The notes under the pieces are model-generated. The model worked only from the letters and a program-made list of their open reading frames with translations, had not been told where the DNA came from and ran no database searches. From Candidatus Kerfeldbacteria bacterium (lineage in GTDB: Bacteria > Patescibacteriota > Patescibacteriia > UBA9570 > XYC2-FULL-38-9), in contig JBDRKW010000020.1 in assembly GCA_043813585.1 (NCBI GenBank), forward strand, positions 1,185 to 65,184: a stretch of DNA of 64,000 nt, read 5' to 3'. The translations under genes were made by a program, and so were the position numbers. Below, piece by piece: positions 2,277 through 48,813 of the stretch (positions are counted from its first letter, which is position 1; each line of letters begins with the position of its first letter).

Positions 2277-2362
2277 TCGTCAGGGCGACCGGCGCATCAG
2301 CGGCATATCTGATGCACCATCAGAACGATCCGCCGCCTACCAGCGGCGCTCAAGTACGATGG

Positions 2363-2404
2363 ACGGGCCGGATCTCTCACCAGATTCCGGCCCGTTCTTT
2401 TTTT
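2363..2404 (+). terminator. rho-independent terminator after the acidic lipoprotein gene
   Basis: A perfect 10-bp stem ACGGGCCGGA...TCCGGCCCGT is followed by TCTTTTTTT. Confidence 0.7.
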
Positions 2405-2456
2405 ACGAAAAACGCGAACACGTGTAGAATACATGCGCAGGCAGCTTTCCGCTGCA

Positions 2457-2485
2457 TTGACAAAACGCAAAAAAACATGTAGAAT
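2457..2485 (+). promoter_or_regulatory. sigma70-like promoter (TTGACA-N17-TAGAAT) for the radical SAM gene
   Basis: TTGACA is at about 2457-2462 and TAGAAT at about 2480-2485, roughly 28 nt upstream of the ATG at 2513. Confidence 0.5.
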
Positions 2486-2512
2486 CCACGGTTTGATACT
2501 AACCATTCCACC

Positions 2513-18142: not shown

Positions 18143-19300
18143 ATGATTGCACCGCATGGAAACAAACTGGTAGAACGCGTTCTGCCGGAAGACAAGATTG
18201 AAGAAGTTAAAAAAGAGGCCGCGTCGCTCGTCAGCATTACGCTCAATGAGGAGCAGATTAAAGATGTGAAAAATATCGCGCGCGGCGTTTTGAGCCCCCT
18301 GACCGGGTTTATGAACCGGGCGGATTTTGAGGGCGTTGTTGACAACATGAAGCTGGCAAGCGGCATTACCTGGTCGATCCCGTTCGTGCTGCATATTTCC
18401 GAAGAGGAGGCAGCCAAGATGAAGAGCGGCGACCGAATTGCGCTGGTGGGCGGAGACGGTGAGCTGGTTGCGCTGATGACGATCGGCGACATTTACGATT
18501 TTGACGTCGAGCACGTGGCAGAGAAGGTATTCGGCACGGCTGACAACGAGCACCCCGGCGTGGCGCGGTGGCGCAAAATCAGCGGACGCAAACTGGTGGG
18601 CGGCGACATTGACCTGGTCGACAACTCGAAAGAGCCGTTCTATGACTATAACCTGGATCCGGCTGAAACGCGGTACCTGTTCAAGCAATACGGGTGGAAC
18701 ACGGTTGCCGGGTTTCAGACGCGCAACACGCCGCATCGCGCGCACGAGTATTTGCAGCGGTGTGCGCTCGAGCTGGTGGACGGCCTCTTCATCAACCCGA
18801 TCATCGGCGAAAAAAAAGCCGGCGATTTCCAGGATGACCTCATTATCAAGACATACGACTACCTTATCAAGAACTTCTTTCCGAAAGAACGCGCCACCTT
18901 TTCGATTTTGCCGGCACGCATGAACTACGCCGGCCCGCGCGAGGCAATCCTGCACGCTATCATCCGCAAGAACTTCGGCTGTACGCATTTTGTCGTCGGC
19001 CGCGACCATGCAGGCGTCGGCAATTACTACGGTTCCTACGACGCGCAGGAAATTTTCGACCAGATCGAGGATATCGGGATTGAAATTATGAAGTTCGAAC
19101 ATTCGTTTTTATGCAAGAAATGCGACACGATGGCGACCACGAAAACGTGCGGCCATACGGACGCCGACCGCGTCTGCCCGTCGGGGTCGCTGATACGCGA
19201 ACTGCTCTCTGCCGGAAAGCCGGTTCCGGAAGATATCATGCGCAAGGAGATTGTTGACCTGCTTCTCGCGGAAAAAAATCTATTCGTTACGGAAGACTAG
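18143..19300 (+). CDS. sat: sulfate adenylyltransferase (ATP sulfurylase)
   Basis: The protein has the GFQTRNTPHRAHEYL (QTRN and HRAH) motifs of ATP sulfurylase. It is 385 aa. Confidence 0.9.
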   Translation: MIAPHGNKLVERVLPEDKIEEVKKEAASLVSITLNEEQIKDVKNIARGVLSPLTGFMNRADFEGVVDNMKLASGITWSIPFVLHISEEEAAKMKSGDRIALVGGDGELVALMTIGDIYDFDVEHVAEKVFGTADNEHPGVARWRKISGRKLVGGDIDLVDNSKEPFYDYNLDPAETRYLFKQYGWNTVAGFQTRNTPHRAHEYLQRCALELVDGLFINPIIGEKKAGDFQDDLIIKTYDYLIKNFFPKERATFSILPARMNYAGPREAILHAIIRKNFGCTHFVVGRDHAGVGNYYGSYDAQEIFDQIEDIGIEIMKFEHSFLCKKCDTMATTKTCGHTDADRVCPSGSLIRELLSAGKPVPEDIMRKEIVDLLLAEKNLFVTED

Positions 19301-19301
19301 G

Positions 19302-20321
19302 ATGCTTGAGATGGTGGATTTCAAAACGCACATCAAAGATGTCGCGCCGGCATCCGTGCTTATCATCCACCACTGGGACGCTGACGGTTTGAGCTGCACC
19401 GCGTTGCTGCTGAACTGGCTGGCGGAGCATGCGCCTGAAACAACCGTGCAGACCATGTACCCGCAGATCAACAACTATTTCCTGACCGAGAGCGAGTATG
19501 AATCCATCCGCGACGGCGGGTATGACGGTATCGTCTGTGCTGACCTGAATTTTTCCGTTGACGTCATCGAAGCGCTGGAGCAGATCGCATCGCCGGTATT
19601 TGTTTTTGACCATCATTCCCAGACAGAAGGCATAAACCGTCCCGGCATCCAGGACACATCGTATCCCGGCTGTTCCGCCCTGGTGCACGAATATTTATTC
19701 GGCGGAGAACCGTCGCTCCTTGGGGTTCTCGGAATGGTTGGCGATATGGAAGAGCGGCTGAAAGAACGCGCAGGCCACTACGAGGCGGTCGAGGCGGTCA
19801 TGGAGAAAGAATCGCTTTCGTTTAAGGATATTCACCACATGACGAGGCTCATTGATACGTCGTATATTATTAAGGACGAGGACGCCATCGCGCATGCGAT
19901 TGAGGTATTGCGAAAAGATCCGAAGGACGCGCTTACCGATGAACAGATGATCGCAAACGAGCAGCGCATTGCGGATGAGTTGGAGCGCGAAAGCGGCAAA
20001 GAGCTGGAGCGGGTGACGGACAAAGTGCTGTTCCTGCCGATTGAATCGGAGATGAGTCTGATTTCGGCAATCACGCGCACGCAGTCGCGCAAGCATCCGG
20101 AAGCGGTGATTGTCACCGAACAGCGGCGCGGAGATGATGCGAGTTTTTATGTGCGAAGGAAAGACGCGGAGATCGACCTGGGCTGCGTGGCAGAGCTGGC
20201 GAAAGGAAAAGGATATGTTGCCGGAGGAAAGCCGGAAGTGACAGGAATTGTTCTGCCGGCCGCTGATCTGGACGGGTTCCGCAGCGAAGTGTTTGAATTG
20301 TTAAAACAGGAGCTTGAGTAG
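19302..20321 (+). CDS. DHH-family phosphoesterase, candidate 3'-phosphoadenosine-5'-phosphate (pAp) phosphatase/nanoRNase (NrnA-like)
   Basis: The start was re-assigned to the ATG directly after the sat stop. The protein has DHH motifs (HHWDADG; FDHHSQ) and a DHHA1-like C-terminus. Its position between sat and cysC suggests pAp recycling. Confidence 0.6.
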   Translation: MLEMVDFKTHIKDVAPASVLIIHHWDADGLSCTALLLNWLAEHAPETTVQTMYPQINNYFLTESEYESIRDGGYDGIVCADLNFSVDVIEALEQIASPVFVFDHHSQTEGINRPGIQDTSYPGCSALVHEYLFGGEPSLLGVLGMVGDMEERLKERAGHYEAVEAVMEKESLSFKDIHHMTRLIDTSYIIKDEDAIAHAIEVLRKDPKDALTDEQMIANEQRIADELERESGKELERVTDKVLFLPIESEMSLISAITRTQSRKHPEAVIVTEQRRGDDASFYVRRKDAEIDLGCVAELAKGKGYVAGGKPEVTGIVLPAADLDGFRSEVFELLKQELE

Positions 20322-21714
20322 TATGAATAACAGGAAGGTCATCGTCATCGGACTGGATTGCGGAACGCCACAGCTTATTTTTGATCAGTATAAAAAAGAC
20401 CTGCCGAATATTTCGGCGATGATGGAGCAGGGAACGTGGGGCAGGCTCAAAAGCACCATACCGCCGATTACCATTCCGGCGTGGGCATGCATGACCACAT
20501 CAAAAACACCGGGCGACCTGGGAGTGTACGGGTTCCGTTCGCGGACGCCAGGCGCGCCGTATGACGCCATGGATATTGCGCACGCGGGCCTTATTAAAGA
20601 AAAACGCATCTGGGATTACCTGGGTGACGCCGGCAAGAAGGTCGGCATGCTCGGGGTGCCGCAGACCTATCCTGTGAAGCCGGTGAACGGCATGATGGTA
20701 TCGAGCTTCATGACACCGAGCACAAAGGAAGAGTTCGCCTACCCGGCAGAATTAAAACAGGAGATCCTCGACATGGTCGCGCCGGATGATTACATTTTTG
20801 ACTTTGCAAACCGGTCCGCAGAACCGCCGGAACAAGTGCTGGAAAAAATCTACACCATGACCGACCAGCGGCAGAAGATCTTCAAGCACTGGATACGGAA
20901 CAAGGAGTGGGACTTCCTCATGATGGTGGAGATGGGCGTGGACCGCATCCACCACTACCTGTGGCAGTACATGGATCCCACGCACAAGGATTATGAAGCC
21001 GGCAACCCTTTCGAAAACAAGATCCGCGAATACTACATGCACATCGACGCGTTCATCGGAGAGGTGCGCGAAATGGCGCCGGCCGACACCGTGATCTACG
21101 TCGTTTCCGACCACGGAGCAAAACGGATGGATGGCATGTTTGTCATCAACGAATGGCTGATTGAAAACGGCTACCTGGTGCTGAAAGAATTCCCGAAGGA
21201 ACCGACAAGCATCAACGCATGTGACGTGGACTGGAGCAAAACGAAGGCATGGGCCTGGGGCGGATTTTACGGGCGCCTGTTTTTGAACATTAAAGGACGC
21301 GAACAGCAGGGCATTGTTGATCCGGCAGACGCGGATGCGCTACTAGACGAACTGCGCTCAAAACTGATGGAAGTGAAGGGTCCAAACGGAGAAGAAATGA
21401 AGCATCTTCTCGTCAAACCGGGCGAATTGTATGCGGATGGGCGTGGCGATTCGCCAGACCTCATGATTTTCTGGGGCGACCTCTACTACAAACTGGCGGG
21501 CACGCTCGGGTACAACTCCTTGTATATCGAAAAGGACGACCGGGGCCTTGATTTCGGCGTCCACGACTGGTATGGTGTGTACTTGCGGCATGATCCGAAG
21601 GCCAAGGGATTGGGCGAAAAAGACGGCCTCAGCATCCTGGACATCACTCCAACCTGGCTGAACGACTTTGGCATGGATGTGCCCGGCGATATGAGAGGAA
21701 CAATTATTGAATAA
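20314..21714 (+). CDS. alkaline-phosphatase-superfamily protein, type I phosphodiesterase/nucleotide pyrophosphatase family
   Basis: The N-terminus [29 protein letters not shown] carries the metal-binding D and the T/S nucleophile typical of PF01663-type enzymes. Confidence 0.65.
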
Positions 21715-22336
21715 TATGAAACAGAAAGCGACAAACATTACATGGCATGAGGGCGACGTCACAAAGGAAGACCGGGAGAAGCTGCTCGGCCAAAAGGGCG
21801 TGGTGATATGGTTCACCGGCCTTTCAGGATCGGGCAAGTCAACGCTGGCAGTTGAGGTAGAGAAAAAATTGTTTACACAGGGCCGTGCGTGTTATCGTCT
21901 TGATGGCGACAACGTCCGCCACGGGATCAACAAAGACCTTGGTTTTTCAGATGAAGACCGCACGGAAAACATCCGCCGCATCGGCGAGGTGGCAAAACTG
22001 TTCGCCGACGCCGGCATCATTGTGATGACATCATTCATCTCTCCGTTCCGGGCTGACCGCGACATTGTTCGCGCGCTTTTGCCGGAAGGGGAATTTATTG
22101 AAGCGTACGTGCAATGTTCGCTTGAAGAATGCGAACGGCGCGACCCCAAAGGGCTCTATAAGAAAGCGCGTGCGGGCGAGATTCCCGATTTTACCGGCAT
22201 TGATTCGGCATATGAGGAACCGATGGACCCGGAGATTGTTGTGGCGACGGATAAAATGGGCATTGAAGAAGCGACCGATTTCCTATTAAAGGAGCTCGGA
22301 CGCCTAGGAGTACTCAATGGCGAAGTTCAACAATAG
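21707..22336 (+). CDS. cysC: adenylylsulfate (APS) kinase
   Basis: The protein has the P-loop [16 protein letters not shown], is 209 aa, and has a conserved APS-kinase core (DGDNVRHG..). Confidence 0.9.
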
Positions 22337-24053
22337 AGCAAAGGCGTTTGTTTTCAGCCTGATTATCTGCGCAGCGCTTGCGGTTGGTTTTGGCGTCATT
22401 TATTTCAACGACAGCGCCTGGGGTACCTGGGGCGATGACTCTGCCGGCTATATTTTCCTGGCCGGGCGCATGTGGGAAGGGGAGCCACTAGTGTACCTGG
22501 ATGAACTGGCAGCCAAAGGGCTGGAGTTTTTCGGCGACGAGAAGTTGGCGCGCTGGCTGACGCCGACGCACCACCAGTTTATTAACACCCGTGGCGTGAT
22601 CGCTTCAAAATACCCCGTTGGTGCACCGATGCTCCTGCTGGTCGGAGCGGCGCTTACAGGCAAGAGCGAAGGGTTTTATCTGGTAACGCCTGCACTGGCA
22701 GCCGCAAACCTTGTATTGTTCTATTTTCTGGCCGTTCTCGTCATACCCAGGCATCGGTACCGCCATTTTATCGGCTTGCTGTCTGCCGGAATGCTGGGAT
22801 TATCGGAACTGTATTACAACTACGCCATTGCGCAGCCGATGCGCGAGATCCCGTCCGTGACATTCCTACTGCTGATCGCCATCTTATTGCTGCGCGGCAT
22901 CCGGTTGCTGAAAAATACAGAACGTAAAAAGGCCGCAACGCCGTTTTATTTCATTTTCGCCGCCGGCTTGGCATTTGGCATGGCGTTCAATATCAGGGAG
23001 ACGAGCGCGCTCATCCTGCCCGGAGCCGCATTGTATGTCCTGTTGGCGCTGTGGCCGAAAAAAGAATCCACGCAGAAGTACATCAAGCAGCTGGCGCTGG
23101 TCGGGTTGTCATTTTTTATCGCGGCCGCGGTTGCCGTGATCCCCACAGCGCTGAATTCGTACAATATTTCACAGGACAAGGAGGTCTTCAAGGCCCGCGA
23201 CACAAGCAATGTGGTCGTACTGCCGAATATCGGCCATGTCGAATCATTAAGCGTGCAGAACCTGTTCGACAACCAGGGCAAGTTCCGCCCCGGCACCGGC
23301 TCGCTGCCGCACTATTGGGGCGTGATGCAGGATGTTGTTCCTGTCCCGTACTTCTTGGTGTTTGTCGCGCTTGGTATCTTTTTCTTGTGGAAGGAATCCA
23401 GGCCGAAAACGGCGCTCCTGGTCGGCTGGGCCGTCGGCATTCTTATCATCTTTTCCATTTGGGTGAACCCGTACTCGCGCTACATTATACCGATGTTCCC
23501 ACCGATGATATTCCTGGGCGTATACGGCTTGTTCGGTTTTTTCCAGGAGCTCGTGCCGAAATTGATTAAGAAACGATGGGCAATGACCATCCTTGCGCTG
23601 GGCGTGTCAGCCACCTTTTTGGTGGCCTACCAGCCGGTGTTTGCGGACGTGAAAGAAAATCTTAAAATCGATGTCCATCGGTATAAAGCGATATCTCACA
23701 AGGATTTGGAAACGTTAATCGATCTGGGCGACGAGCTGGTGCTTTCCGACCAGCCGGTGCTGATGTTTTCCGGCGTCTGGCAGTACGGAACGAGCGAAAC
23801 GCTGGAAGCTCATACCGGTTTAAAGACCGTCCGCTTTCCGCTGGAACAGCGGTTTGATTTTAACGAAGGCCGGGTAAACGAATTCTTCGTTTCAATGCTT
23901 TCGGACGGGTACACGCTCTATGTCTGGGTGGACGAAACATCCTCGCCAGAGCTGTTTACATGGCTTGAGATGTATGATACGAATCTCGTGGACACGCTGG
24001 ACTTCACCTTCCAGCCGCAGGTCCGCATTTACGAGGTCAGAGCTCAACGATAG
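22317..24053 (+). CDS. GT-C family membrane glycosyltransferase (ArnT/PMT-like)
   Basis: The protein has more than 10 TM helices and a DD motif in the first extracytoplasmic loop ([10 protein letters not shown]). It has a C-terminal soluble domain of about 130 aa. Confidence 0.6.
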
Positions 24054-24058
24054 CCGCT

Positions 24059-24739
24059 ATGCATGAAATAAAGAAAATTGCAGACGTCAAACCGTTCCAG
24101 AAACCGCAGGACTCTGTTTTTTCAATGCTATTCACAAGAAGACTTTCCCGCATCCTGACGTTCATCCTGGTCAAGGCGGATAAGGGCGTAACGCCCAACA
24201 AGGTTTCGACTTTTTCATTCCTGCTCGCGGTCATCGCGTGCGTGCTATTTGTATATGAAGATTATTGGGCGCGGTTTGCCGGCGTTATCCTACTGCAGCT
24301 CAGCTTCGCGTTTGATTGTTCGGACGGCGAGATCGCGCGCATCAAGAACATGAGTTCCAAATTCGGGGCGTGGCTGGATTCTGTCTACGACCGCATCAAA
24401 GAGGTGCTCATGTTTGCGTCCATGACGCTGTACTGGTTCCTGTACGAGGAGCGCGCGGTGTGGGTGCTCCTGGTCGGCTTTTTTGCAATCATCGGTTTGC
24501 TGCTTGTTTCTTACCTGCGCGAAGCGAAGAGAAGCTCCTGGCCGTCGAACCGCGTATCCGAACTGTTTATTGCAAAAGATATCTACGTCGGCACCGTGGA
24601 TGTCACGATCTACCTGGTCAGCTTTGCCGTGCTGTTTAACTTTCAAGTCTACATCCTGACGGTATTTTTACTTGTCAGCATACCGTTGCTGGCCAAGCAG
24701 TTCCTTTCTGCCTACCGGCTTTCGAAAAAAGAAATATAA
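24059..24739 (+). CDS. CDP-alcohol phosphatidyltransferase family protein
   Basis: The protein has the signature DCSDGEIAR..G.WLDSVYDRIKE (D-G-x2-A-R...D-x3-D) and multiple TM helices. Confidence 0.8.
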   Translation: MHEIKKIADVKPFQKPQDSVFSMLFTRRLSRILTFILVKADKGVTPNKVSTFSFLLAVIACVLFVYEDYWARFAGVILLQLSFAFDCSDGEIARIKNMSSKFGAWLDSVYDRIKEVLMFASMTLYWFLYEERAVWVLLVGFFAIIGLLLVSYLREAKRSSWPSNRVSELFIAKDIYVGTVDVTIYLVSFAVLFNFQVYILTVFLLVSIPLLAKQFLSAYRLSKKEI

Positions 24740-24740
24740 A

Positions 24741-24770
24741 ATGCCGCATGAAGCGGCATTTTTCTTATTT
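24741..24770. terminator. bidirectional rho-independent terminator between convergent genes
   Basis: A hairpin ATGCCGC-atgaa-GCGGCAT is flanked by an A-run on one side and TTTTTCTTATTT on the other. Confidence 0.7.
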
Positions 24771-24778
24771 GAGGCGCT

Positions 24779-26404
24779 CTAGAGTTTAATGCTGCCGAGC
24801 GCGCTTTTGATTGAGTCGCGCTCCGACTCCTTTTCTTCTTGTTTGCGCGAAACCGGGCCGATCTCTACCGGCTTCTTTTTGGCATCAGAATCTTCCGTAA
24901 ACAACGCCTTGGAAACGCGGCCGTCGCAGTCAGAAGGAACCGGCAGGCCGAACAGGTGAAGGATAATCGGCGTAATGTCCTGCATCTTCAAATTTTTGAC
25001 CTCGGCGTTGGTTTCAAAGTCCGGGCCGTAGGCCATGAACACGCCGTATTTGCCGTGCTTGTTGCTGACCTCTTCGCCAAACAGGGAGCCGGAATGGAAA
25101 TGGCCGGTGAGCCAGTACTGGTCCAGTTCAAAGAAGATATCCGGCGCCTGGTCAGGCGCATCGCCGCCGTACACCTCGTCGCGCGTCATGACCTTTTTCA
25201 CGACAGGAACGCCCTGCGGGTCCTTGAGGTTGCGGAGCTTATCGATAATTTCGGTTCGCAGCGGCAGGTATTCAGCGCTGGAGACCGTACCGTCCGTGTA
25301 GACCCAGTCCTTGTTGATATAGGCATTGGTGATATAGGCGCCTTTCGGAAAGCAAACGTTCGTTTCGTTGAAATCGATGCCCACGTTCACTTTGATATGG
25401 ACGGGGAAGTATTTCTTCACGATATGGTGGTAGCTCCATTTTGCCGCGCGCTCGGCAACGGGAATCTTCGACAGCGCGTTAATGGCTCCGGTCCCGATAT
25501 TCAGCTTCTTCTTTTTTGCGCGCAGCGTGTCTGTTTCTTTTGCGCGCCTCGTCACCGCGCCGCGGAAGTCGTCGCCCTGCTTGTTTGTCTTCAAATAGCC
25601 CTGCTGTTCAAGCCATCGGTTCAAGTAGAAGATCTTATCAAACGCCGCAAATCCGTGGTCGGAGAGTACAATCAGGTTCGCATCTTCGGGAAGGTTATCT
25701 ACAAACCATTTCAGGTGTTCGTCTATCTTTTCAAAGACGCGGCGGGGGGATTCAGCTTGCTGCTCTTCCAGCTCCTTGAACGCCATGTGTGAAATCCAGT
25801 CGGAATGCGAGAAGAGGTAGAAGAAAAAATCCCACGGCTTCTTTTTGAAGATCGCTTTCACTGCCTCGACCTGCTCTTCCATATGGTTCAATAGGTCTTC
25901 CGTATATTCATCCTGCCGCGACGTGATGCGTAGGCTCTCATCCGGCGTGAGCCGCCATTTCTTCAGCTCCGGGAACTCTTCAACGAGCGATGCGGGATAG
26001 ATGAACTGGTCGCCCTGCGTGAGCAAGCTGGTGATGGTCGGCGTATCCTTCAGTTTCGGCGGCCAGGTAGCAGGCAGGTTCAGCAGAATGGACTTGAGCC
26101 CGCGTTCATGCAACAGCTCATAGATCGTCTTATCCTTGATGTCTTTACTCGTCACGAACTTCATGTTGCCGAGCGAATCAGTCGGAAGCATAAAATCAAA
26201 TACGCCGTGCTTGCCCGGATGCTTGCCGGTGGCAAAGGTCGTCCACGCGGTCGCGGTCATGTTCGGGATGGTCGATTCCAAATCGCCGGACACGCCCTGC
26301 TCCATGAGCTTTTTCACGGTCGGCATGTATCCCTTGTCTGCAAGCGGCTTCAACAATTTCCATGTGGCGCCGTCAAGGCCAATGGCAACAATTTTCCTGT
26401 TCAT
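24779..26404 (-). CDS. alkaline-phosphatase-superfamily protein, type I phosphodiesterase/nucleotide pyrophosphatase family (paralog of 20314-21714)
   Basis: The N-terminus KIVAIGLDGATWKLL..TIPNMTATAWTTFATGK matches that family. The protein is 541 aa. Confidence 0.65.
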   Translation of the reverse strand: MNRKIVAIGLDGATWKLLKPLADKGYMPTVKKLMEQGVSGDLESTIPNMTATAWTTFATGKHPGKHGVFDFMLPTDSLGNMKFVTSKDIKDKTIYELLHERGLKSILLNLPATWPPKLKDTPTITSLLTQGDQFIYPASLVEEFPELKKWRLTPDESLRITSRQDEYTEDLLNHMEEQVEAVKAIFKKKPWDFFFYLFSHSDWISHMAFKELEEQQAESPRRVFEKIDEHLKWFVDNLPEDANLIVLSDHGFAAFDKIFYLNRWLEQQGYLKTNKQGDDFRGAVTRRAKETDTLRAKKKKLNIGTGAINALSKIPVAERAAKWSYHHIVKKYFPVHIKVNVGIDFNETNVCFPKGAYITNAYINKDWVYTDGTVSSAEYLPLRTEIIDKLRNLKDPQGVPVVKKVMTRDEVYGGDAPDQAPDIFFELDQYWLTGHFHSGSLFGEEVSNKHGKYGVFMAYGPDFETNAEVKNLKMQDITPIILHLFGLPVPSDCDGRVSKALFTEDSDAKKKPVEIGPVSRKQEEKESERDSIKSALGSIKL

Positions 26405-26435
26405 ACTATCAGTTAATGTCCGCTTAACCTCTCCC

Positions 26436-26519
26436 GTGCATTTCCATCGCGTGCTATTCTCGTCTTCGCTCGACGCACGCTACATGGAAATGCACTCGCG
26501 AGGATTCGCGGACAGTATT
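26436..26519. repeat. structured inverted-repeat element, copy 1 (12-bp outer stem, 6-bp inner stem, 20-nt loop, conserved 3' tail)
   Basis: The outer stem is GTGCATTTCCAT...ATGGAAATGCAC. The conserved core is cgcgtgctattctcgtcttcgctcgacgcacgctac, and the tail is tcgcgaggattcgcgga. The same core, with a different but perfectly complementary stem, occurs at about 53803-53885. Confidence 0.7.
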
Positions 26520-26524
26520 TTTTA

Positions 26525-26737
26525 TTAATCAAGGTAACCGAGGTCTTCCAGCCGCTTCTTGACGGCTTCCTCCTGTTCCTTGGTGTAGGTCGGTTCTGCG
26601 GCCGGTTCATTGCCGGTCTGCTTAATGACCTCCTCCAGTACATAGTTCACGTACGCTTCGACAGAATCGAATTCGTCGGATGCGTTGACGCGCTCTTCGA
26701 GTTTCTTTGTAAGGTCGTCGTTCAGGTTAATCTGCAT
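26525..26737 (-). CDS. small ribbon-helix-helix (CopG/Arc-like) DNA-binding protein candidate
   Basis: The protein is 70 aa. Its N-terminus MQINLNDDLTKKLEER fits a beta-strand-helix RHH pattern, and it has an acidic C-terminus. No cognate toxin gene was seen. Confidence 0.4.
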   Translation of the reverse strand: MQINLNDDLTKKLEERVNASDEFDSVEAYVNYVLEEVIKQTGNEPAAEPTYTKEQEEAVKKRLEDLGYLD

Positions 26738-27491
26738 GGTTTTGGTTTACTTGTTTTTTATCGTATCGATGGAACATCCGGTAGGCAAGTACGGCGGATG
26801 ATAGTGCGTAAAAAGTTTCCAGAACAGCATAAACGATCACCCCGACATGCGCAAGATTCAGCAGGCCGAACACCGTAAAGAGCAGTACGCGATCCGAAAG
26901 CTTGAACAGCACCGAGTGTTTCAGCGTCCGCATCAGCTGGCTGCCCGAATCGGATGCAATAGGCGAGTGCGCGGCATCTTTTTGGCCTTCCTGTTCCAGT
27001 TTGAAGTTGTCGCGGTTCAGCGCGGTGATGTTGCGCATAAACTGGAAGGTGATTGCCGCAAATGCCGCAATAAATATCCACCAGATCTGCTTGTCGGAAA
27101 CAATAAATGCGCCGTAGGCAAATCCAAACAGGACGGCGGCGTCCTTGAGTTTGTCGCTATGGTAGTCAAACCAGTGGCCCATTTTTGACTGCAGCCCTTT
27201 CAGCCGCGACAGCTGCCCGTCGCAGCAGTCGAATATGAATGAAACATGCAGGGTTATTATGCCGGCAACCAGGTATTCATAGGTCCCCACGGAAAAAAGG
27301 TACGCCGCGCCCAGGCCGAGCACGAGCGACGCTGCGGTAAAGTGGTTCGGCTTCAGCGGCAAACGCCGTGTTGCGCGCACAATCAGGTTTGCAACCTGCG
27401 CAGAAAAGTAATACGCAAGAACACCGTCCTCCTTTTTGATGACGCTTCTTGGATTGATGGGAGTTTGCGCCCGGTTATCCATTGTCTGCAT
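26727..27491 (-). CDS. CDP-alcohol phosphatidyltransferase family protein
   Basis: The protein has the signature DCCDGQLSRLKGLQSKMGHWFDYHSDKLKD and is a polytopic membrane protein. Confidence 0.8.
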   Translation of the reverse strand: MQTMDNRAQTPINPRSVIKKEDGVLAYYFSAQVANLIVRATRRLPLKPNHFTAASLVLGLGAAYLFSVGTYEYLVAGIITLHVSFIFDCCDGQLSRLKGLQSKMGHWFDYHSDKLKDAAVLFGFAYGAFIVSDKQIWWIFIAAFAAITFQFMRNITALNRDNFKLEQEGQKDAAHSPIASDSGSQLMRTLKHSVLFKLSDRVLLFTVFGLLNLAHVGVIVYAVLETFYALSSAVLAYRMFHRYDKKQVNQNHAD

Positions 27492-28551
27492 TCTTGATTG
27501 CTTGGTTGAGCTCCGCCACGCGCTGCTCCGCCTCTTTCTTATTCATATTCAGCTTCTCCAATATTGTATACCGCTCCGGGCGCGTCTCCGGTGCCTTGAG
27601 CAGCACCTCGACGAACTGTTCATCCGACAAGCCGAGCTTTGAATGGTGTGCCGGCATATCGACCGCGTGCAAAAAATTCAGAAATTCTGCTATCGGCTCG
27701 TCGCGCAGGAATGCGGCAACAAGCGTGCCGTAGCAGACCTGAAGCCCGTGGAGCGAGCTGCCGGGATATAACAAGTCGATCGCGTGCGAGATCTCATGCT
27801 CTGCTCCGGAACAGGGACGGGAATTGCCGGCAATGTTCATGGCGATACCCGAAAGGATCAGGCCGTGCACCAGTTTTTCTAAAAAGTCCCCGCTCCGAAG
27901 ATCAATAGAGGACCCTCTGCAGGTGTCAAAAATGAGCTCTGCGCTGGAATACGCCATTGAAGCGGCAAAGTCATCCATGCGCTCTTTCCCTTGTGCATAG
28001 GCGAGTTTCCAATCCGCGATTGCGGAATAATTCGATACCAGATCGCCGATGCCCGCTTTGATATTATTGACCGGCGCAGTGGTGAGGAGCTTCGTATCAA
28101 CAAGGATGCCGATCGGCATGTTCACGCCAATGCTTTCCGTTTTCCCTTGCTCATTCACGAGTACGGCAACAGGGGAGCAGATACCGTCATTGGACGGCGA
28201 GGTCGGTATGGAAATATAGTTCACGCCCGCTTTGGTTGCGGCATACTTGCCGAGGTCAATGACGCGGCCGCCGCCGATGCTGACCACGAGGTCGTTGCCT
28301 TTGTCGCGGATTTCCGCGGCAAGGTTGTTGCCCTCTTCAATGGAGCTTTCCGAAAACAGGACGGTTGCCGGGTCGCCGAGCGCATGGACCGCATCATTGC
28401 CGCCGAGTTCAAGGATATGTTCTTCGGAAATGACCAGCGGCTTCTGGAAATGCAGGTGATGCTCGTCCAAAATCGAACGGATCATCGAAAGCGAACCGGT
28501 TTCGATCTTGATAAACAGCGGAATCTGGATTGTACGGAGAATCGTTGCCAT
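27475..28551 (-). CDS. glycerol-1-phosphate dehydrogenase (G1PDH/AraM/EgsA family; DHQS-like Fe-ADH superfamily)
   Basis: The protein has GGGRVIDLGKYAA (the NAD(P)-binding GGG motif), IPTSPSNDGICSP (the G1PDH-type PTxxSxDGxxSP substrate/metal motif) and SGAEHEISH (a metal-binding His pair). It is 358 aa. Confidence 0.65.
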   Translation of the reverse strand: MATILRTIQIPLFIKIETGSLSMIRSILDEHHLHFQKPLVISEEHILELGGNDAVHALGDPATVLFSESSIEEGNNLAAEIRDKGNDLVVSIGGGRVIDLGKYAATKAGVNYISIPTSPSNDGICSPVAVLVNEQGKTESIGVNMPIGILVDTKLLTTAPVNNIKAGIGDLVSNYSAIADWKLAYAQGKERMDDFAASMAYSSAELIFDTCRGSSIDLRSGDFLEKLVHGLILSGIAMNIAGNSRPCSGAEHEISHAIDLLYPGSSLHGLQVCYGTLVAAFLRDEPIAEFLNFLHAVDMPAHHSKLGLSDEQFVEVLLKAPETRPERYTILEKLNMNKKEAEQRVAELNQAIKNADNG

Positions 28552-29282
28552 TAGAAATCGTTGATCAGCGAATTGGCTCGCTTTAAATCCTCATGCGTAT
28601 CAATTTCCATGCAGGGCATGCCGTTGGTCGACAGCGGCTTTACGACAACGCCATGGTCTTCAATCATGCGCTGGATGCCGTCTTCATAATATAGTGAATC
28701 ATCGTCAGAGATCGTCTTGTCGAGAGCATCGAGCAGCTGGTCCTTGATATCTTTCGTCAGCTTCATGACGCCGATATACTCGCCGTGCGACTCATCGGGC
28801 GAAAGGCTCTTATGGATATGGGCGATCGATTCCTCTTCATTGGTGATGACTTTCATCTCTTCGTCTCCCAGCTCCTTCACGTCGTCCACCACCATCGCAT
28901 TGCCGTATTCAGATTCGATCAGCCGGCGCAAAATATCAGCATGGAAAATCGTGTCAGAATTAATCAGGATAAAGTCCTCGTCAAACACCTCGTGCGCGCA
29001 TCGCATCGAAACAATGTTGCCGGCCGCATCAAACTTGTCGTTATAGATCAGGTTGATATTGATGTCAGGGTATTTCTTTTGGTACTCGGTCGCAAATTCT
29101 TCAATAGCAGGATGCCCGTGGCCGGTGACAATATCAAAATGGTCCAGCCCGGCCTCGCGCGCTGTATCCAAAATATGGTCAAGAATGGTCTTTTCACCGA
29201 TTCGAAGAAGGGTCTTTGGGATGTCCTTGGTGAGCGGGAGCAGCCGCTTGGCGCTGCCGGCCGCCATGATTATTGTTCTCAT
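28551..29282 (-). CDS. sugar/alcohol-phosphate nucleotidyltransferase (NTP_transferase family)
   Basis: The N-terminus is IMAAGSAKRLLPLTKDIPKTLL (GxGxRLxPLT). The protein is 243 aa. It overlaps the G1PDH gene by 1 nt. Confidence 0.75.
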   Translation of the reverse strand: MRTIIMAAGSAKRLLPLTKDIPKTLLRIGEKTILDHILDTAREAGLDHFDIVTGHGHPAIEEFATEYQKKYPDININLIYNDKFDAAGNIVSMRCAHEVFDEDFILINSDTIFHADILRRLIESEYGNAMVVDDVKELGDEEMKVITNEEESIAHIHKSLSPDESHGEYIGVMKLTKDIKDQLLDALDKTISDDDSLYYEDGIQRMIEDHGVVVKPLSTNGMPCMEIDTHEDLKRANSLINDF

Positions 29283-30724
29283 GAGCTTTTCTTGCTTAAC
29301 GCCTCCTTAAGGATGTTTTTGTCATACGGCGTAAAAAAGCGGAACAACCAGAGCAATCCGGTGTATGCCGCCATGCCGAAAATCACGAGGACTATAACAT
29401 GAACGTACGGTTTTATCAAGGCCAGTAAACCGAGCATTCCGGCGGTTGCAAGGAAGACGGGAATGAACGAACGCATACTTGCAAACAGCGATTCCCGCAG
29501 GTAGCGTCCTGACAGGTAAATATACGAACCGGCGATAAGGCATTCAGTGATAAGGGTTGCAATTGCAGCGCCCCGGGCGCCGTATTTTGAAATAAGATAT
29601 ATATCAAGAACGATGTTGACGCCCACTGAAGCGATCTGGATGCCCGCGCGCAGGCCCTGGCGGTCAGTAGTAGTCATGGAATTGCCCTGGCTGATGCCGA
29701 AGAACCGAATCGCCATGAACCATCCCATGATTTGCAGCACGACCACGGACGCAAGATATTCTTCCCCATAGACGAATCCGGTGATTTCCGGCGCCAATAA
29801 CCACAACCCGACTCCCGCCGGCAGGCCGAATGCGGCAAGGTACCGCCAGATCGTGCGGTTGATGCGCTTGTATTTTTCAATATTATCCCTGCTGTAGCGG
29901 TACATGATCGGCATCGTGACCTGGAAGACCATGAGCGGGATGAACAAAAATGCGGATACCAGCTTTGCAGATGCGGAATAGATGCCCACTTCGGTCTTGT
30001 CGCGCATGATCGAGAGGATGATCTGGTCGATCTGGAAGTAGAGCATGAAGAACATGTTGTACAGGGTGAACACGTACGACTGTTTTATCATGGGCCAGAT
30101 CTGGCGCGCGGAAAATGCCGGCCGGACGAATTTGAACGTATAGAGCAGAAGCGCTATGACGATAAACACGTCGATCCACAAGCGGGAATGGGCGATTGCC
30201 AGCAGGCCGGTGTCCTTATCGGCGACTGCATAGATAATCCACGCCGTTATCAGGAAATAGAGCACGCCATTGAGGATCTCGAGTAGCGCAACCGTTTTCA
30301 GCTGAAGGAACACGCGGAAGATGCCGCGCGCGACCTTGCGGAATTCGAACGCAAGTCCGGCCGCGCCGAGGACCGCCATGAGCGTGATAGTGGTAGCGTC
30401 GTAGTGCAGCCCAAACCCAATGCCGATAATGGCGGCATATAATACGAGCGAACAAAGCACTTCAACAACAAGCGTATTGCCGAAATAGACCGCCATCTTT
30501 TTTTCGTCGCGCGCCGCCTCGCGCACGATCAGCGTGCTCATCCCGATGTCATTCAGCGCCAAAAATGCGTTTGCCCATGCAAGCGCCGTTTCGAACATGC
30601 CGAACCGGTCCACGCCAAGGTAGCGCGCCGCATAGATCATGACCGCGGCCGTCAGGAAGCGGAACACAACGCGCGCGACCATGAGGTACGAAACATTCTT
30701 AAAGACCTTTTTTGTAAGGCTCAT
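29279..30724 (-). CDS. polysaccharide/oligosaccharide flippase (Wzx-like, MOP superfamily)
   Basis: The protein is 481 aa with about 12-14 TM helices, as in the polysaccharide-biosynthesis-protein family. It overlaps its neighbours by 4 nt. Confidence 0.7.
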   Translation of the reverse strand: MSLTKKVFKNVSYLMVARVVFRFLTAAVMIYAARYLGVDRFGMFETALAWANAFLALNDIGMSTLIVREAARDEKKMAVYFGNTLVVEVLCSLVLYAAIIGIGFGLHYDATTITLMAVLGAAGLAFEFRKVARGIFRVFLQLKTVALLEILNGVLYFLITAWIIYAVADKDTGLLAIAHSRLWIDVFIVIALLLYTFKFVRPAFSARQIWPMIKQSYVFTLYNMFFMLYFQIDQIILSIMRDKTEVGIYSASAKLVSAFLFIPLMVFQVTMPIMYRYSRDNIEKYKRINRTIWRYLAAFGLPAGVGLWLLAPEITGFVYGEEYLASVVVLQIMGWFMAIRFFGISQGNSMTTTDRQGLRAGIQIASVGVNIVLDIYLISKYGARGAAIATLITECLIAGSYIYLSGRYLRESLFASMRSFIPVFLATAGMLGLLALIKPYVHVIVLVIFGMAAYTGLLWLFRFFTPYDKNILKEALSKKSS

Positions 30725-31803
30725 TAATATTTGAGTAGTGAATCGAATACGGACCGGTATGATTCAGCGACGTCGTCCCATCGGAAATGGCTGACAGTGT
30801 ATTCCCGCGCGCGCTGTCCGAATGCGCGGCGCTCTTCCACATCTGCCGCCCATTCGCGCAGTACCGCAGCAAACTGTTCCGGCTGTTCCGCATCTACGAG
30901 CCTGCCGTTTTGTCCGTCGTAAATCGCGTCAGTGATCCCTTCAAGCCGGGAGGCCACAACAGGAAGGCCGGCTGCTGCCGCTTCCACTGCAACAAAGCCG
31001 AAACCCTCGACATCGTCCTTCTCGTCAATATTCGGCATCACGAATGCGTCAGCTCCGGAGTATAAGTTTGTGAGTAATTCGTTATCAATGCCGCCCAGCA
31101 GCGTAACTGACTGTTGCAGTTTTGTTTCCTCTATTGCCCGTTCGATCGATTCGCGCTCCGGACCGTCAGATGCAATGACAAACAGTGGAGAGAGATTATC
31201 AAGCAGCGGCATTACCGACCGGACAAACCATTCAATGCCCTTCCGCCGCACCAGGCGCCCGACAGAAAGAATAATAAACTGGTTGTCGCAGCCGTCATCC
31301 GTGCTCATCATCCTGCAGAGCGCGCTGCGCGCTTCATTCCGGTCGCGCATCTGCGGTGGGGTGACGCCATGGGGAATGCACTTAATTTTTTCTTCGGGAA
31401 CGCCTCGCTCCATTAACAGCGAACGCGTGTTTTCGCTTACGCAGACAAACCGGTCCACTGAAGGCAGGGAAGCATTGATCATCCATGTGTACAACGGCCC
31501 CATTTTTTTATAGGTGAGTTCAAGTCCGTGAACGGTGGCAACCACCGGTCTTGGGGTGAACACCTTTAGTATTCGTGCAACCGGTGCAAGGACCAGGTCG
31601 CCCAAGTGGTACGCGTCCGCTTTTTTACGGAGCCCGATCGCCTTAATCGCTAGCAGGGGGATAACCCATATGATGTCTGCCTGGCGCTTCCCGCGTGCAA
31701 TAACAGTTTTTTCATCGCTAAAATGGCGTATCAGCTCGTAGCTAAACGTCTCCATGCCGCCCTTTTGAGGCGGGTATTTGCGGGTGAGAAAAACGATATG
31801 CAT
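30724..31803 (-). CDS. glycosyltransferase, family 4 (GT-B fold)
   Basis: The protein has an N-terminal GT4 domain (IVFLTRKYPPQKGGMETF) and a C-terminal motif EGFGFVAVEAAAAGLPVVAS. Confidence 0.85.
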   Translation of the reverse strand: MHIVFLTRKYPPQKGGMETFSYELIRHFSDEKTVIARGKRQADIIWVIPLLAIKAIGLRKKADAYHLGDLVLAPVARILKVFTPRPVVATVHGLELTYKKMGPLYTWMINASLPSVDRFVCVSENTRSLLMERGVPEEKIKCIPHGVTPPQMRDRNEARSALCRMMSTDDGCDNQFIILSVGRLVRRKGIEWFVRSVMPLLDNLSPLFVIASDGPERESIERAIEETKLQQSVTLLGGIDNELLTNLYSGADAFVMPNIDEKDDVEGFGFVAVEAAAAGLPVVASRLEGITDAIYDGQNGRLVDAEQPEQFAAVLREWAADVEERRAFGQRAREYTVSHFRWDDVAESYRSVFDSLLKY

Positions 31804-43064: not shown

Positions 43065-45089
43065 ATGGAATATTCAAACGCTTCTCTATCAATCAGCTCG
43101 CGGGTCTTGCCCGGCGTCATCGCCTATATCTGTTTTTTTGCGGCTGCAACGCTCGCGTGCGCCCTGTATTTCAGCATGAAAGGGCAGCTGTTTTCCAGCG
43201 GAATTTTGTATTACCAAATTTCGGCGTTTCTGGATTGGTTCACCCCGTCCATTACCTATTTATTTATCGGATGCTCCTGTATCATAGCCGCAAGCGCAGT
43301 GTATGCGTCATTGCTTCGTCTGGGTGCGGATTCATGGTTATCATGGACCTTCGGGATTTTGTATGCGCTGGCGCCGGTAATGATGCAGGATGCGTTTTCC
43401 CTTCCCGCATCCATGTTTTTCATGATCGGCTTCCCGGTTTCATTTTTTTTGATTATATCAGCGATACATTCCTGGTACGGGATCGCTTTTTCCATCATCT
43501 GGGCAATGGCCTGGACAATTGTGCTGCCGGTCGGGGGCGTTGCGCTGATACTGACAATCGCATCCGGGTATTGGTGGTTTGACCTCGTGCTTTCGGACCA
43601 GAAAGGAACGAGGCTGAACAGGTTTTTTACGACCGTATCGTTGGTTGGGTCCTATATCGTGTTCATTGTGCTTGCAATCATGCTTTCGCGGTTTGTCGCG
43701 CCAGTGCTGGAACGTTTTAATATTAACGCCTACGACCGCCTCATTGAGGTCGCCAAACACGCGTCCGTTGATTTTAGCTGGGCGCTGGACTTTCCTTTGA
43801 GCGCCCTTTTTTCAATTTATTTCCCGGTTGAACCGACAAGCGTTCCGGAATACTCAATTCCCGCCTTTGCAATGCTGTTAGCGCTCGCACTGTACGCCTG
43901 GCTGTCAAAAAAGTATATCAGCGGTATTTTTTCACGGGCCATGCTCGTGTGGACCGGCCTTGTTTCCTTGCTCTGCCTCGTGGTCAGCCTCGGTCCTCTC
44001 TTGAAATTCGGCTCGCAAATTGTAGAACCGTACATCCCGCTTCCCGGCGCATTTTTGATTTGGTTCAGCAGCTTTGAAAAAGCGCCGTATTATTTCATTC
44101 TCCCTGCGCTTTTTTTCGCCCTCCTTGCGGCCGGCATGCTTATATCGAGCTATGTCAGGAAACACCAGTATAAGTATTTTACGGCAGTTATTACGGTGGG
44201 GTTCATATTTTTCATCGGCCAGTACGCGACCGGTGCGGTTCCGCGGACCTACCTGTACATGGGCCAGGATTACAGCGGGATCACCGAACGCCCGCAGTCA
44301 ACCCAGGTCTTTGAAATCCATTCGGGGTATATTCTGGAGAGCTATTTGCGCTACCAACGCGCGGCCCAGCACGGCCAGCTGGTGGTAGACGACTCGTCGG
44401 AATTCGGCCAGCAGATATACCACATCATCGCCACCAGCGGCGTCCCGTTCATTCCGCAGCAGAACGCAAACGCGACCGGCGCCATATTATCGTATTATAA
44501 TATCCATTACGTTGACCTGATCAAACAGACGGTCAAGCCGGGAAAGAAAAAGCTGATTGACGCCGCAGAGAACCTTGAGGCGTACGAGGCAATCCCGTTC
44601 GCGCAATTACTCAACAGCAACCACGCGTTCGTTCCGCTGGCGAAGGATGAATACCACAATCTCTACGCGGTTCAGTTTTCGGAGCTGCCGGAAGCCCATA
44701 TCAGCTTTACCCAGACCTCGCCGCCGACCGCACGCGTCAAGATCGACGAGTCCAGCGAGGCGCAGGAATTCAAGTATATCCAGTTCATCAGCGGTGGGAA
44801 GCTCAATTATATGAATTTTACGCAGGACCGGCAGCAGGCGGAAGTCCGCATCAACTACAGCAGCAAGCGGTTCATACAGCTCCACGTCATGTTTGACAAC
44901 CAGCTCGTCAAGATGTTCACGATTCCGAAAAAGACAAACAACGCGCAACTCGAATTCACGCTCGAAAACATTGAGCCGGGCGAGCACAGTATTGAATTTG
45001 TCATACTAAAGAGAAAAGGAGCCGTACTCGACAACATCAATACAAAAAGCGGACTTCGGGTCCGCTCGCTGGAGTATTCATTAGATTAA
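43065..45089 (+). CDS. polytopic membrane protein with a C-terminal soluble domain, possibly GT-C/YfhO-like
   Basis: The N-terminal 400 aa hold about 10 TM helices, and a soluble C-terminal region of about 250 aa follows. No DD/DE motif was recognised. A candidate TTGGAA-N18-TATAAT promoter ends about 10 nt upstream, which suggests a very short leader. Confidence 0.45.
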   Translation: MEYSNASLSISSRVLPGVIAYICFFAAATLACALYFSMKGQLFSSGILYYQISAFLDWFTPSITYLFIGCSCIIAASAVYASLLRLGADSWLSWTFGILYALAPVMMQDAFSLPASMFFMIGFPVSFFLIISAIHSWYGIAFSIIWAMAWTIVLPVGGVALILTIASGYWWFDLVLSDQKGTRLNRFFTTVSLVGSYIVFIVLAIMLSRFVAPVLERFNINAYDRLIEVAKHASVDFSWALDFPLSALFSIYFPVEPTSVPEYSIPAFAMLLALALYAWLSKKYISGIFSRAMLVWTGLVSLLCLVVSLGPLLKFGSQIVEPYIPLPGAFLIWFSSFEKAPYYFILPALFFALLAAGMLISSYVRKHQYKYFTAVITVGFIFFIGQYATGAVPRTYLYMGQDYSGITERPQSTQVFEIHSGYILESYLRYQRAAQHGQLVVDDSSEFGQQIYHIIATSGVPFIPQQNANATGAILSYYNIHYVDLIKQTVKPGKKKLIDAAENLEAYEAIPFAQLLNSNHAFVPLAKDEYHNLYAVQFSELPEAHISFTQTSPPTARVKIDESSEAQEFKYIQFISGGKLNYMNFTQDRQQAEVRINYSSKRFIQLHVMFDNQLVKMFTIPKKTNNAQLEFTLENIEPGEHSIEFVILKRKGAVLDNINTKSGLRVRSLEYSLD

Positions 45090-48582: not shown

Positions 48583-48813
48583 ATGAGTACTCTCAAGAAA
48601 CAATGCATTTTTTACACCGAACAGCTGCTGCCGTTTGCGTTCAGGCTGCTCCTGGTGTGGTATGTTATTGCAGTATTGCTGGAAGTCATATTTCCCGGTT
48701 TCATATCGCTGTCGATCAACCTTGATCTATTTCTTTGGATTGTTATAATTGTTGCGGTTTTTTCTTTTAGTTTAGAACGTCGAATCCGCGCTAACCAGAA
48801 TAGGCAAACATGA
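48583..48813 (+). CDS. small hypothetical membrane protein (2 TM)
   Basis: The ORF is 76 aa, with hydrophobic segments FAFRLLLVWYVIAVLL and LFLWIVIIVAVFSF. It is tightly packed between neighbouring genes. Confidence 0.35.
   Translation: MSTLKKQCIFYTEQLLPFAFRLLLVWYVIAVLLEVIFPGFISLSINLDLFLWIVIIVAVFSFSLERRIRANQNRQT

Follow-up and report, generated by a model that had tools for sequence, protein, structure and literature searches.

The 64,000-nucleotide stretch of Candidatus Kerfeldbacteria DNA analysed here (the window) carries on its minus strand an operon in which a homologue of glycerol-1-phosphate dehydrogenase (G1PDH) is joined to a nucleotidyltransferase (NTase), a Wzx-type flippase, a family 4 glycosyltransferase (GT4) and a CDP-alcohol phosphotransferase. 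We read this operon as a putative glycerol-phosphate (GroP) decoration module for an envelope glycoconjugate, and give this reading a probability of roughly 0.55. The best-supported course of events would be the formation of sn-glycerol-1-phosphate (G1P), the enantiomer of archaeal type, its activation to CDP-glycerol, the transfer of GroP to a predicted acceptor and the flipping of the product by Wzx. Families were assigned to the open reading frames (ORFs) of the window by Pfam and NCBIfam profile searches. In the direction of transcription, the operon and its signals are as follows.

31849-31822: promoter-like site upstream of the GT4 gene.
30724-31803, minus strand: GT4 glycosyltransferase, 359 amino acids (aa), first gene of the operon (Pfam Glycos_transf_1 1.2e-33, Glyco_transf_4 3.8e-15).
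29279-30724, minus strand: Wzx-type flippase of the MOP family, 481 aa (Pfam Polysacc_synt 1.2e-22).
28551-29282, minus strand: NTase of the NTP-transferase fold, 243 aa (Pfam NTP_transferase 4.4e-12, and NTP_transf_3).
27475-28551, minus strand: G1PDH-family (EgsA/AraM-like) dehydrogenase, 358 aa (Pfam Fe-ADH_2 5.9e-30).
26727-27491, minus strand: CDPOH1, CDP-alcohol phosphotransferase 1, a membrane protein of 254 aa (Pfam CDP-OH_P_transf 2e-12).
26525-26737, minus strand: conserved acidic ORF of 70 aa, with a counterpart of 61% identity in a second Kerfeldbacteria locus.
26417-26514, minus strand: RNA hairpin upstream of the PDE541 gene (minimum free energy -52.4 kcal/mol, z = -7.3).
24779-26404, minus strand: PDE541, 541 aa, alkaline-phosphatase superfamily (Phosphodiest/NPP-like), last gene of the operon (Pfam Phosphodiest 4.2e-36).
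24738-24762, both strands: bidirectional intrinsic terminator with a 10-bp stem and T-runs on each side.

Successive genes overlap by 1 nt (GT4/Wzx), 4 nt (Wzx/NTase), 1 nt (NTase/G1PDH) and 17 nt (G1PDH/CDPOH1), and these five genes are translationally coupled. The ORF coordinates and the 1-nt and 4-nt overlaps given by a first-pass annotation of this DNA agree with the ORF list. The genes that it had assigned to the operon also stand, but it had placed them in the reverse of their transcriptional order (GT4, Wzx, NTase, G1PDH, CDPOH1) and had ended the operon at 26727, whereas the operon runs on through the 70-aa ORF to PDE541. The terminator at 24738-24762 closes it and also serves a convergent operon on the plus strand. 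No NCBIfam model was matched above its cut-off by the GT4 protein, and a hydropathy scan of the flippase gave about 12 hydrophobic segments.

The pathway that we propose has four steps. The G1PDH-family enzyme would reduce dihydroxyacetone phosphate (DHAP) with NAD(P)H to sn-G1P, as its family membership suggests. The NTase would use CTP to convert this to CDP-glycerol, the enantiomer of the TagD product. CDPOH1, perhaps with CDPOH2 (a second CDP-alcohol phosphotransferase, encoded by the convergent operon), would then take GroP from CDP-glycerol and, on the cytoplasmic side of the membrane, attach it to a hydroxyl group of an acceptor bound there, with release of CMP. The acceptor would most likely be a polyprenyl-phosphate-linked oligosaccharide made by GT4 and other glycosyltransferases of the surrounding polysaccharide island, and a lipid-linked oligosaccharide is favoured because the context is a glycan one in every lineage. 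Wzx would finally flip the decorated unit, and the island's Wzy-like and GT-C-like proteins would polymerise or attach it. The product is probably a polyanionic glycan that carries both GroP and sulfate, because the island also encodes sulfotransferases and the synthesis of 3'-phosphoadenosine 5'-phosphosulfate. The first-pass annotation had outlined a pathway of this kind together with three objections to it, concerning the identities of the dehydrogenase, the NTase and the phosphotransferases. Its logic survives all three; the stereochemistry of the product, and the choice of a glycan over a lipid head group, are the parts that we infer.

Against the NCBIfam model for G1PDH (NF002022) the dehydrogenase scored 282.8 bits over residues 5-347, compared with 97.5 bits for the glycerol dehydrogenase GldA and 34 bits for AroB. 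On these scores we reject a glycerol dehydrogenase or a dehydroquinate synthase, the two identities against which the first-pass annotation had wanted its G1PDH assignment tested; as it stays below the equivalog cut-off, we take the protein as a divergent member of the G1PDH family rather than an EgsA equivalog or orthologue. Its best relatives in the PDB are the G1PDH of M. jannaschii (4rgq, 1.6e-44) and that of P. calidifontis (5fb3, 1e-39), the GldA entries being found at 1e-21 or weaker. The metal ligands (Asp of GDxxSN, His of SGxEH and His of LHG) and the GGGxxxD motif for NAD(P)H are present, align with those of the two archaeal enzymes and are invariant in the alignment of homologues. 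PTxxSxDG, SRPxSGxEHxxSH and TRPxRYT align with the archaeal enzymes as well, and a C-terminal R-x2-R-(Y/W)-T motif, which archaeal G1PDH has in common with the window dehydrogenase, may have a role in phosphate binding. The signatures picked out by the first-pass annotation (GGGRVIDLGK, PTSPSNDGICSP and SGAEHEISH) are all found in the translation; the one it gave for the NTase, GxGxRLxPLT, actually reads GxAxRLxPLT.

In a rough neighbour-joining (NJ) tree the CPR (candidate phyla radiation) dehydrogenases form a clade with 98/100 bootstrap support, and the archaeal EgsA proteins stand apart (71/100). A single bacterial G1PDH clan was recovered in only 11/100 replicates, the deep backbone being unresolved, and for this reason nothing is claimed about a transfer from Archaea to Bacteria. 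Membership of the G1PDH family could also be taken to indicate an archaeal-type ether lipid, for which G1P would be passed to a GGGPS/PcrB-like prenyltransferase as with AraM of B. subtilis, and one relative of the cassette, in Kitasatospora, does lie beside isoprenoid (HpnC/D-like) genes. The window ORFs scanned and the flanks examined hold no GGGPS, PcrB or UbiA-type gene, and an ether lipid leaves the coupling to an NTase unaccounted for. We consider it extremely improbable, and an AraM/PcrB system was rejected on the lack of GGGPS/PcrB in those ORFs and flanks.

The NTase has the N-terminus AAGSAKRLLPLT, with a P-loop that reads GSAKRL and not GxGxRL. Among Pfam families it matched NTP_transferase and NTP_transf_3 only, and not the TagD-type CTP_transf_like fold (PF01467) with its HxGH. 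The NCBIfam cut-offs that apply lie between 290 and 580, and the protein scored 91.3 bits with Arch_glmU (cut-off 292), 87 with AglF (cut-off 400) and 69.5 with IPCT. A sugar-1-phosphate NTase, which the first-pass annotation had named as a possible undoing of its pathway, was rejected, as no cut-off of the RmlA/GalU/GlmU/AglF type was passed and the window encodes a separate RmlA-like NTase at 48810-49883 (NTP_transferase 2.6e-51). NCBIfam does not discriminate further here, the NTases of the window, of a gtp-type locus and of actinomycetes all scoring far below cut-off in a similar pattern. The best solved relatives are PntC (6pd1, 4.6e-14), a phosphonate cytidylyltransferase, and LicC (1jyk, 1e-10), a CTP:phosphocholine cytidylyltransferase, both of which act on small phospho-alcohols. 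On the strength of this homology and of the gene coupling, the NTase is predicted to be a CTP:glycerol-phosphate cytidylyltransferase. The LicC/LicD and PntC systems are alike in that a small phospho-alcohol is cytidylylated and then transferred to an envelope acceptor; they differ in substrate, and the transferase of the window belongs to another family than LicD.

The conservation of the cassette was followed in a genome scan with one genome per GTDB species (80 loci) and in a linkage analysis of 87 loci (cited below by label, such as L003), in which partners were sought among the ORFs of each locus with the window proteins and counted as near within 4 kb. The NTase adjoins the G1PDH homologue in about 70 of the 80 genome loci, and both an NTase and a CDP-alcohol phosphotransferase are near it in 66 of the 87. 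The 66 loci span Kerfeldbacteria and other CPR bacteria, many genera of Actinomycetota (Micromonospora, Salinispora, Kitasatospora, Streptomyces, Nonomuraea and Microbispora among them) and some unclassified metagenome-assembled genomes (MAGs). Neither partner is present in the archaeal loci L065, L078 and L081, whose dehydrogenases group with EgsA. Although the window enzyme has its family, metal ligands and conserved motifs in common with EgsA and AraM, the coupling to an NTase and a CDP-alcohol phosphotransferase marks the bacterial genes and is missing from the archaeal ones. The cassette is real, but it is not unique to this genome and is widespread in actinomycetes. The view of the first-pass annotation that a G1PDH in such an operon is not a standard arrangement is not supported by this distribution, by the resemblance to the pneumococcal gtp1-3/wchX genes and by a 2026 survey of synteny in Streptomyces, which lists the cassette genes with tagG and tagH (PMC13118837).

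The window dehydrogenase is 100% identical to an NCBI protein from Candidatus Kerfeldbacteria, and the two loci closest to the window are from Kerfeldbacteria as well. The whole block of two operons, with its sulfate-activation genes, recurs in the Patescibacteria loci L003 and L005 (dehydrogenase identity 47-56%), and Kerfeldbacteria L008 has its genes in the same order. The order GT4-Wzx-NTase-G1PDH is conserved in L001 and L008, and in every CPR locus the gene immediately upstream of the NTase encodes Wzx. The surroundings of the cassette are always machinery for envelope glycans: Wzx, GT4 and GT-C genes in CPR bacteria, an exosortase and Wzy in L007, and the actinomycete and Fusobacterium sets described below. 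In actinomycetes the cassette comprises an AF2299-like protein (an N-terminal domain plus a CDP-OH domain), DUF5941, the NTase, the G1PDH homologue, a second CDP-alcohol phosphotransferase and a GT2. DUF5941 is conserved there (L026, 8485-9150) and is fused to the AF2299-like protein in L024 (6655-9273, 873 aa), which makes it a candidate functional partner of this transferase. In Kitasatospora (L027, 9258-18639) a TagG/TagH-like ABC-2 exporter is encoded behind the series NTase, G1PDH, CDP-alcohol phosphotransferase and GT2; beyond the exporter there is a pair of squalene/phytoene-synthase-like genes with an amine oxidase, which resemble hopanoid genes of the HpnC/D/E type. Two CDP-alcohol phosphotransferase paralogues per cassette recur in both phyla in a rough tree. 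A GpsA glycerol-3-phosphate (G3P) dehydrogenase with an NTase of its own (NTP_transf_3 type) is inserted in the cassette in L001 (11099-12789) and L025, and a second NTase of that type, without GpsA, in L008 (12083-12766), which suggests that some relatives may activate both enantiomers of glycerol phosphate. The Woesearchaeota locus L006 (6333-12454) has a CDP-alcohol phosphotransferase, an NTase-HAD fusion of 499 aa, a G1PDH-like gene and Wzx, with B12-binding radical SAM genes nearby; to judge from these genes, a DPANN archaeon carries a 'bacterial-style' glycan cassette.

By analogy, we take the pneumococcal wchX/gtp1-3 genes as the closest characterised system. They lie in a capsule locus of the order wzx, wchX, gtp1, gtp2, gtp3, rml (PMC5581491), and the gtp genes are held to make CDP-2-glycerol for the glycerol-2-phosphate of the capsule, with WchX as the transferase (PMC1391919). 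Capsule types 15 and 23 are among those that use this pathway. A similar order is found in Fusobacterium sp. SB021 (L054), namely RmlD, a TagF-like Glyphos_transf protein, Wzx, a G1PDH-like gene, an NTase and a HAD-IIA hydrolase; the window dehydrogenase is 37% and the window NTase 29% identical (3e-31 for the latter) to this pair. In the 2010 work of Wang et al., Gtp1 is reported to be a reductase, Gtp2 a cytidylyltransferase and Gtp3 a phosphotransferase. As no pneumococcal or 'Gtp1'-named protein occurs among the best 120 homologues of the Fusobacterium Gtp1-like protein, the link to Gtp1-3 is a presumed one, drawn from gene order and from the families to which the three proteins are assigned. 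What the two systems would have in common is a G1PDH/AraM-like dehydrogenase adjoining a cytidylyltransferase of the NTP_transferase family, a Wzx-dependent locus and CDP-activated glycerol. They differ in that the window ORFs scanned, and the 4-kb surroundings in CPR and actinomycete loci, hold no HAD, in that one or more CDP-alcohol phosphotransferases replace the TagF-like WchX, and in that the predicted GroP is sn-1-linked and not 2-linked.

The window could nevertheless hold a CDP-2-glycerol pathway, with a dehydrogenase and an NTase of the Gtp1/Gtp2 type, a HAD Gtp3 encoded elsewhere and glycerol-2-phosphate as the decoration. The identities to the Fusobacterium proteins and the match of their order to the pneumococcal one would suit it, as would the NTase-HAD fusion beside a CDP-alcohol phosphotransferase in the Woesearchaeota relative. 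But there is no HAD among the window ORFs scanned with Pfam, and a match to the Fusobacterium HAD lies within 4 kb in 3 of the 87 loci, none of them from CPR bacteria or actinomycetes. The HAD-linked dehydrogenases (L054, 10001-12556; L046, 8432-11009) also form a subclade of their own (100/100), separate from the CPR clade. We hold this pathway to be distinctly unlikely in the window. The HAD-linked enzymes keep the C-terminal R-x2-R-(Y/K)-T and the other archaeal G1PDH motifs, which raises the question of whether they use a phosphorylated substrate, with HAD as a mutase, or free dihydroxyacetone.

Wall teichoic acid synthesis offers a further comparison with the proposed decoration pathway. 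As with TagD/TarD and TagB/TagF, CDP-glycerol would be made in the cytoplasm and GroP added to a lipid-linked glycan before export, and the actinomycete cassette lies beside the TagG/TagH-like exporter. The differences are that a G1PDH supplies the glycerol phosphate instead of GpsA or GlpK, that the cytidylyltransferase has the NTP_transferase and not the TagD (CTP_transf_like) fold, that the transferase is a polytopic CDP-alcohol phosphotransferase instead of a peripheral TagF-like protein, and that the opposite stereochemistry is expected. The window ORFs scanned with Pfam include no TagF-like (Glyphos_transf), LtaS-like or GGGPS gene, and Glyphos_transf was found in only two of the 87 loci, L054 and L073. 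In the literature available, no experimental characterisation of the version of the cassette with CDP-alcohol phosphotransferases turned up. Among the schemes considered, the cassette fits best with the decoration of surface glycans by a CDP-polyol phosphate.

CDPOH1 has the motif D88-x2-D91-G92-x2-S-R96-x8-G105-x3-D109-x3-D113, in which Ser replaces the canonical Ala. The four Asp, two Gly and the Arg are invariant in 27 homologues, and the position of the substituted Ala varies; CDPOH2 has the canonical DxxDGxxARx8Gx3Dx3D. The concern of the first-pass annotation that the two could be simply housekeeping PgsA/PssA did not hold up. The models TIGR00560 and TIGR00473 gave 20.2 bits for PgsA (cut-off 109.1) and 21.1 and 33 bits for PssA (cut-off 107), on which the housekeeping identity was rejected, and the phosphotransferase genes are syntenic with the G1PDH gene across phyla. 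The AlphaFold2 model of CDPOH1 (pLDDT 82) is all-helical, and in structure (TMq 0.68) as in sequence (4o6m, 2.5e-13) its best match is AF2299 of Archaeoglobus fulgidus, followed by phosphatidylinositol-phosphate synthases and DIPPS. The best NCBIfam match of CDPOH2 is the DIPPS domain (83 bits, cut-off 580), and in a rough NJ tree it groups with AF2299. The IPCT/DIPPS model NF041135, with its cut-off of 580, gave 41, 69.5 and 83 bits for the window proteins, and the window ORFs searched with Pfam include no MIPS. AF2299 and IPCT/DIPPS, whose CDP-alcohol phosphotransferases use soluble CDP-alcohols, are thus the best matches of the two transferases, and the upstream paralogue of actinomycetes has the AF2299 architecture; against this likeness stand an identity of 23%, curated scores far below cut-off and a context of glycan export, not of solute synthesis. 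In solved relatives the active site faces the cytoplasm. For CDPOH1 we predict the transfer of glycerol phosphate with CDP-glycerol as the donor.

CDP-alcohol phosphotransferases are classically lipid enzymes, and the head group of phosphatidylglycerol has the stereochemistry of G1P. In a Kennedy-type route, CDP-(sn-1)-glycerol would be used on diacylglycerol, or on a glycosyl-diacylglycerol made by GT4, and would give phosphatidylglycerol directly or a glycerophospho-glycolipid without PgsA or a PGP phosphatase. CPR bacteria that scavenge lipids might be well served by such a route. It is in line with the curated models and structures closest to the transferases (AIPS, PIPS, DIPPS, AF2299), and GT4 has glycolipid-anchor and MGlcDAG synthases among its relatives, at scores far below cut-off. 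For Bacteroides/Prevotella, an analogous but unproven route to phosphatidylinositol has been put forward that combines an NTase with a CDP-alcohol phosphotransferase (PMC9246714). The structural match of CDPOH1 to the diacylglycerol-using CEPT1/CHPT1, however, is poor (E 0.1-1, rmsd 8.6-10.7) beside that to AF2299, the cassette is linked to Wzx, TagGH-like exporters, GT2 and GT-C and not to lipid genes, and two phosphotransferase paralogues together with Phosphodiest enzymes would be superfluous. A lipid head group made in this way is the main rival of the glycan reading, and we think it unlikely.

PDE541 has neither a transmembrane (TM) segment nor a signal peptide and should be cytoplasmic. 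Its gene directly follows that of CDPOH1 in L003, L005 and L008, and paralogues follow the G1PDH gene in the actinobacterial MAGs L032, L053 and L079. A second cytoplasmic Phosphodiest enzyme, PDE466 (466 aa), is encoded inside the sulfation cassette, yet homologues of it come immediately after the G1PDH gene in those three MAGs; the NCBIfam and PDB matches of these proteins (PhnA, ENPP6) are weak. PDE541 might act on the product as a phosphatase or phosphodiesterase, or might be a second GroP transferase. A phosphatase in this position would also agree with a soluble phosphodiester as the product, for instance diglycerol phosphate or glycero-phospho-inositol: GroP would pass from CDP-glycerol to G3P or inositol-1-phosphate, and a Phosphodiest enzyme would then cleave off the terminal phosphate, as in Archaeoglobus or Aquifex. 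AF2299 and IPCT/DIPPS are the closest relatives of both transferases, and L001 and L025 add GpsA, as a supply of G3P, with a second NTase. Yet no DIPPS or AIPS score comes near its cut-off, and in every lineage the genes are flanked by a flippase and glycosyltransferases; linkage to an exporter (TagGH-like or Wzx) would make no sense for a cytoplasmic solute. The CPR hosts, moreover, presumably come from non-thermal settings of low salt. We regard a soluble phosphodiester as highly unlikely.

Several points weigh against the GroP decoration reading. The dehydrogenase does not reach the equivalog cut-off of NF002022 (282.8 against 413 bits), and the models of sugar-1-phosphate NTases slightly outrank IPCT for the NTase, with all of them far below cut-off (91 and 87 against 69.5 bits). 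Wang et al. reportedly found that Gtp1 reduces dihydroxyacetone rather than DHAP, so that the substrate in the window could differ from DHAP. We know of no CDP-alcohol phosphotransferase that decorates a glycan, the characterised members using lipids or small soluble alcohols. Decoration by GroP also leaves unexplained the roles of the second CDP-alcohol phosphotransferase and of the two Phosphodiest enzymes, the need for two such paralogues and the conserved pairing of CDPOH2 with a GT-C-like gene.

The hairpin at 26417-26514 is near-perfect, lies in a spacer of 120 nt, differs from shuffled sequences at the z-score given above and is unique in the window. It is located where L008 carries its extra NTase gene, and may be an element of mRNA processing or stability, or the scar of a gene loss. 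The 70-aa ORF just upstream matched no family; its counterpart in L008 (11853-12080, 75 aa) occupies the same position. The convergent operon on the other side of the terminator (18143-24739, plus strand) comprises the following.

18143-22336, plus strand: sulfate-activation cassette of ATP sulfurylase, DHH phosphoesterase, PDE466 and APS kinase (Pfam ATP-sulfurylase 3.2e-87, DHH 1.2e-7, Phosphodiest 1.1e-45, APS_kinase 4.3e-71).
22317-24053, plus strand: GT-C-like polytopic membrane protein, 578 aa, about 10 TM segments by TM scan (Pfam PMT_2 4.9e-5, below cut-off).
24059-24739, plus strand: CDPOH2, CDP-alcohol phosphotransferase 2, 226 aa (Pfam CDP-OH_P_transf 3.5e-18).

This operon is translationally coupled, with overlapping gene ends, and the sulfate-activation genes are co-transcribed with the GT-C-like gene and CDPOH2. 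The GT-C-like gene is syntenic in L003, L005, L008 and L009, and CDPOH2 is always paired with it in CPR loci. This block of sulfation and CDP-alcohol genes is kept in L003, L005 and L008. Both operons are enclosed in a polysaccharide island of about 55 kb. Elsewhere in this island the Pfam scan of window ORFs shows Wzy_C, another Wzx, numerous genes for GT4 and GT2 enzymes, several GT-C-like proteins, two sulfotransferases, a UDP-glucose dehydrogenase, epimerases, Rml genes and a WecA/MraY-like initiating transferase. Three large ORFs of the island had no Pfam match, at 2297-3478 (minus strand, 393 aa), 43065-45089 (plus strand, 674 aa) and 47102-48580 (plus strand, 492 aa). Searches of the window for tRNA genes and Rfam families gave none. 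The NTase is predicted to use CTP as its co-substrate, and a CTP synthase gene (58799-60505, plus strand) is encoded immediately downstream of the island, but this neighbourhood may be a coincidence.

Bacterial homologues of G1PDH have been used as evidence in the debate on the lipid divide between Archaea and Bacteria (PMC6431249, PMC5059525). In the loci sampled here, these homologues are nearly always coupled to an NTase and a CDP-alcohol phosphotransferase in glycan-export loci, and this points to a role of bacterial G1PDH at the cell surface and not in ether lipids. If so, the presence of a bacterial G1PDH should not count as lipid capacity. A bolder proposal, which we put forward tentatively and with low confidence, is that the cassette of NTase, G1PDH and CDP-alcohol phosphotransferase, often with two transferase paralogues, would be an undescribed route to envelope polymers of sn-G1P that is independent of TagF and LtaS and has membrane CDP-alcohol phosphotransferases, working with CDP-(sn-1)-glycerol on the cytoplasmic side, as the GroP primase/polymerase or decorating enzymes. 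If this were true, the bacterial G1PDH clan (PMC6431249) would serve surface polymers rather than membrane lipids, and the CDP-alcohol phosphotransferase family would be extended to glycan or teichoic-type acceptors. How actinobacteria without LtaS make their glycerol-phosphate polymers is unexplained (PMC3196553), and the cassette would be a candidate for making poly(glycerol-phosphate) lipoteichoic or teichoic acids independently of LtaS in these organisms, with orthologues in culturable and tractable genera such as Streptomyces, Kitasatospora and Micromonospora. For CPR bacteria the prediction is a surface glycan that would be both sulfated and glycerol-phosphorylated, which would be relevant to how these episymbionts present themselves to their hosts.

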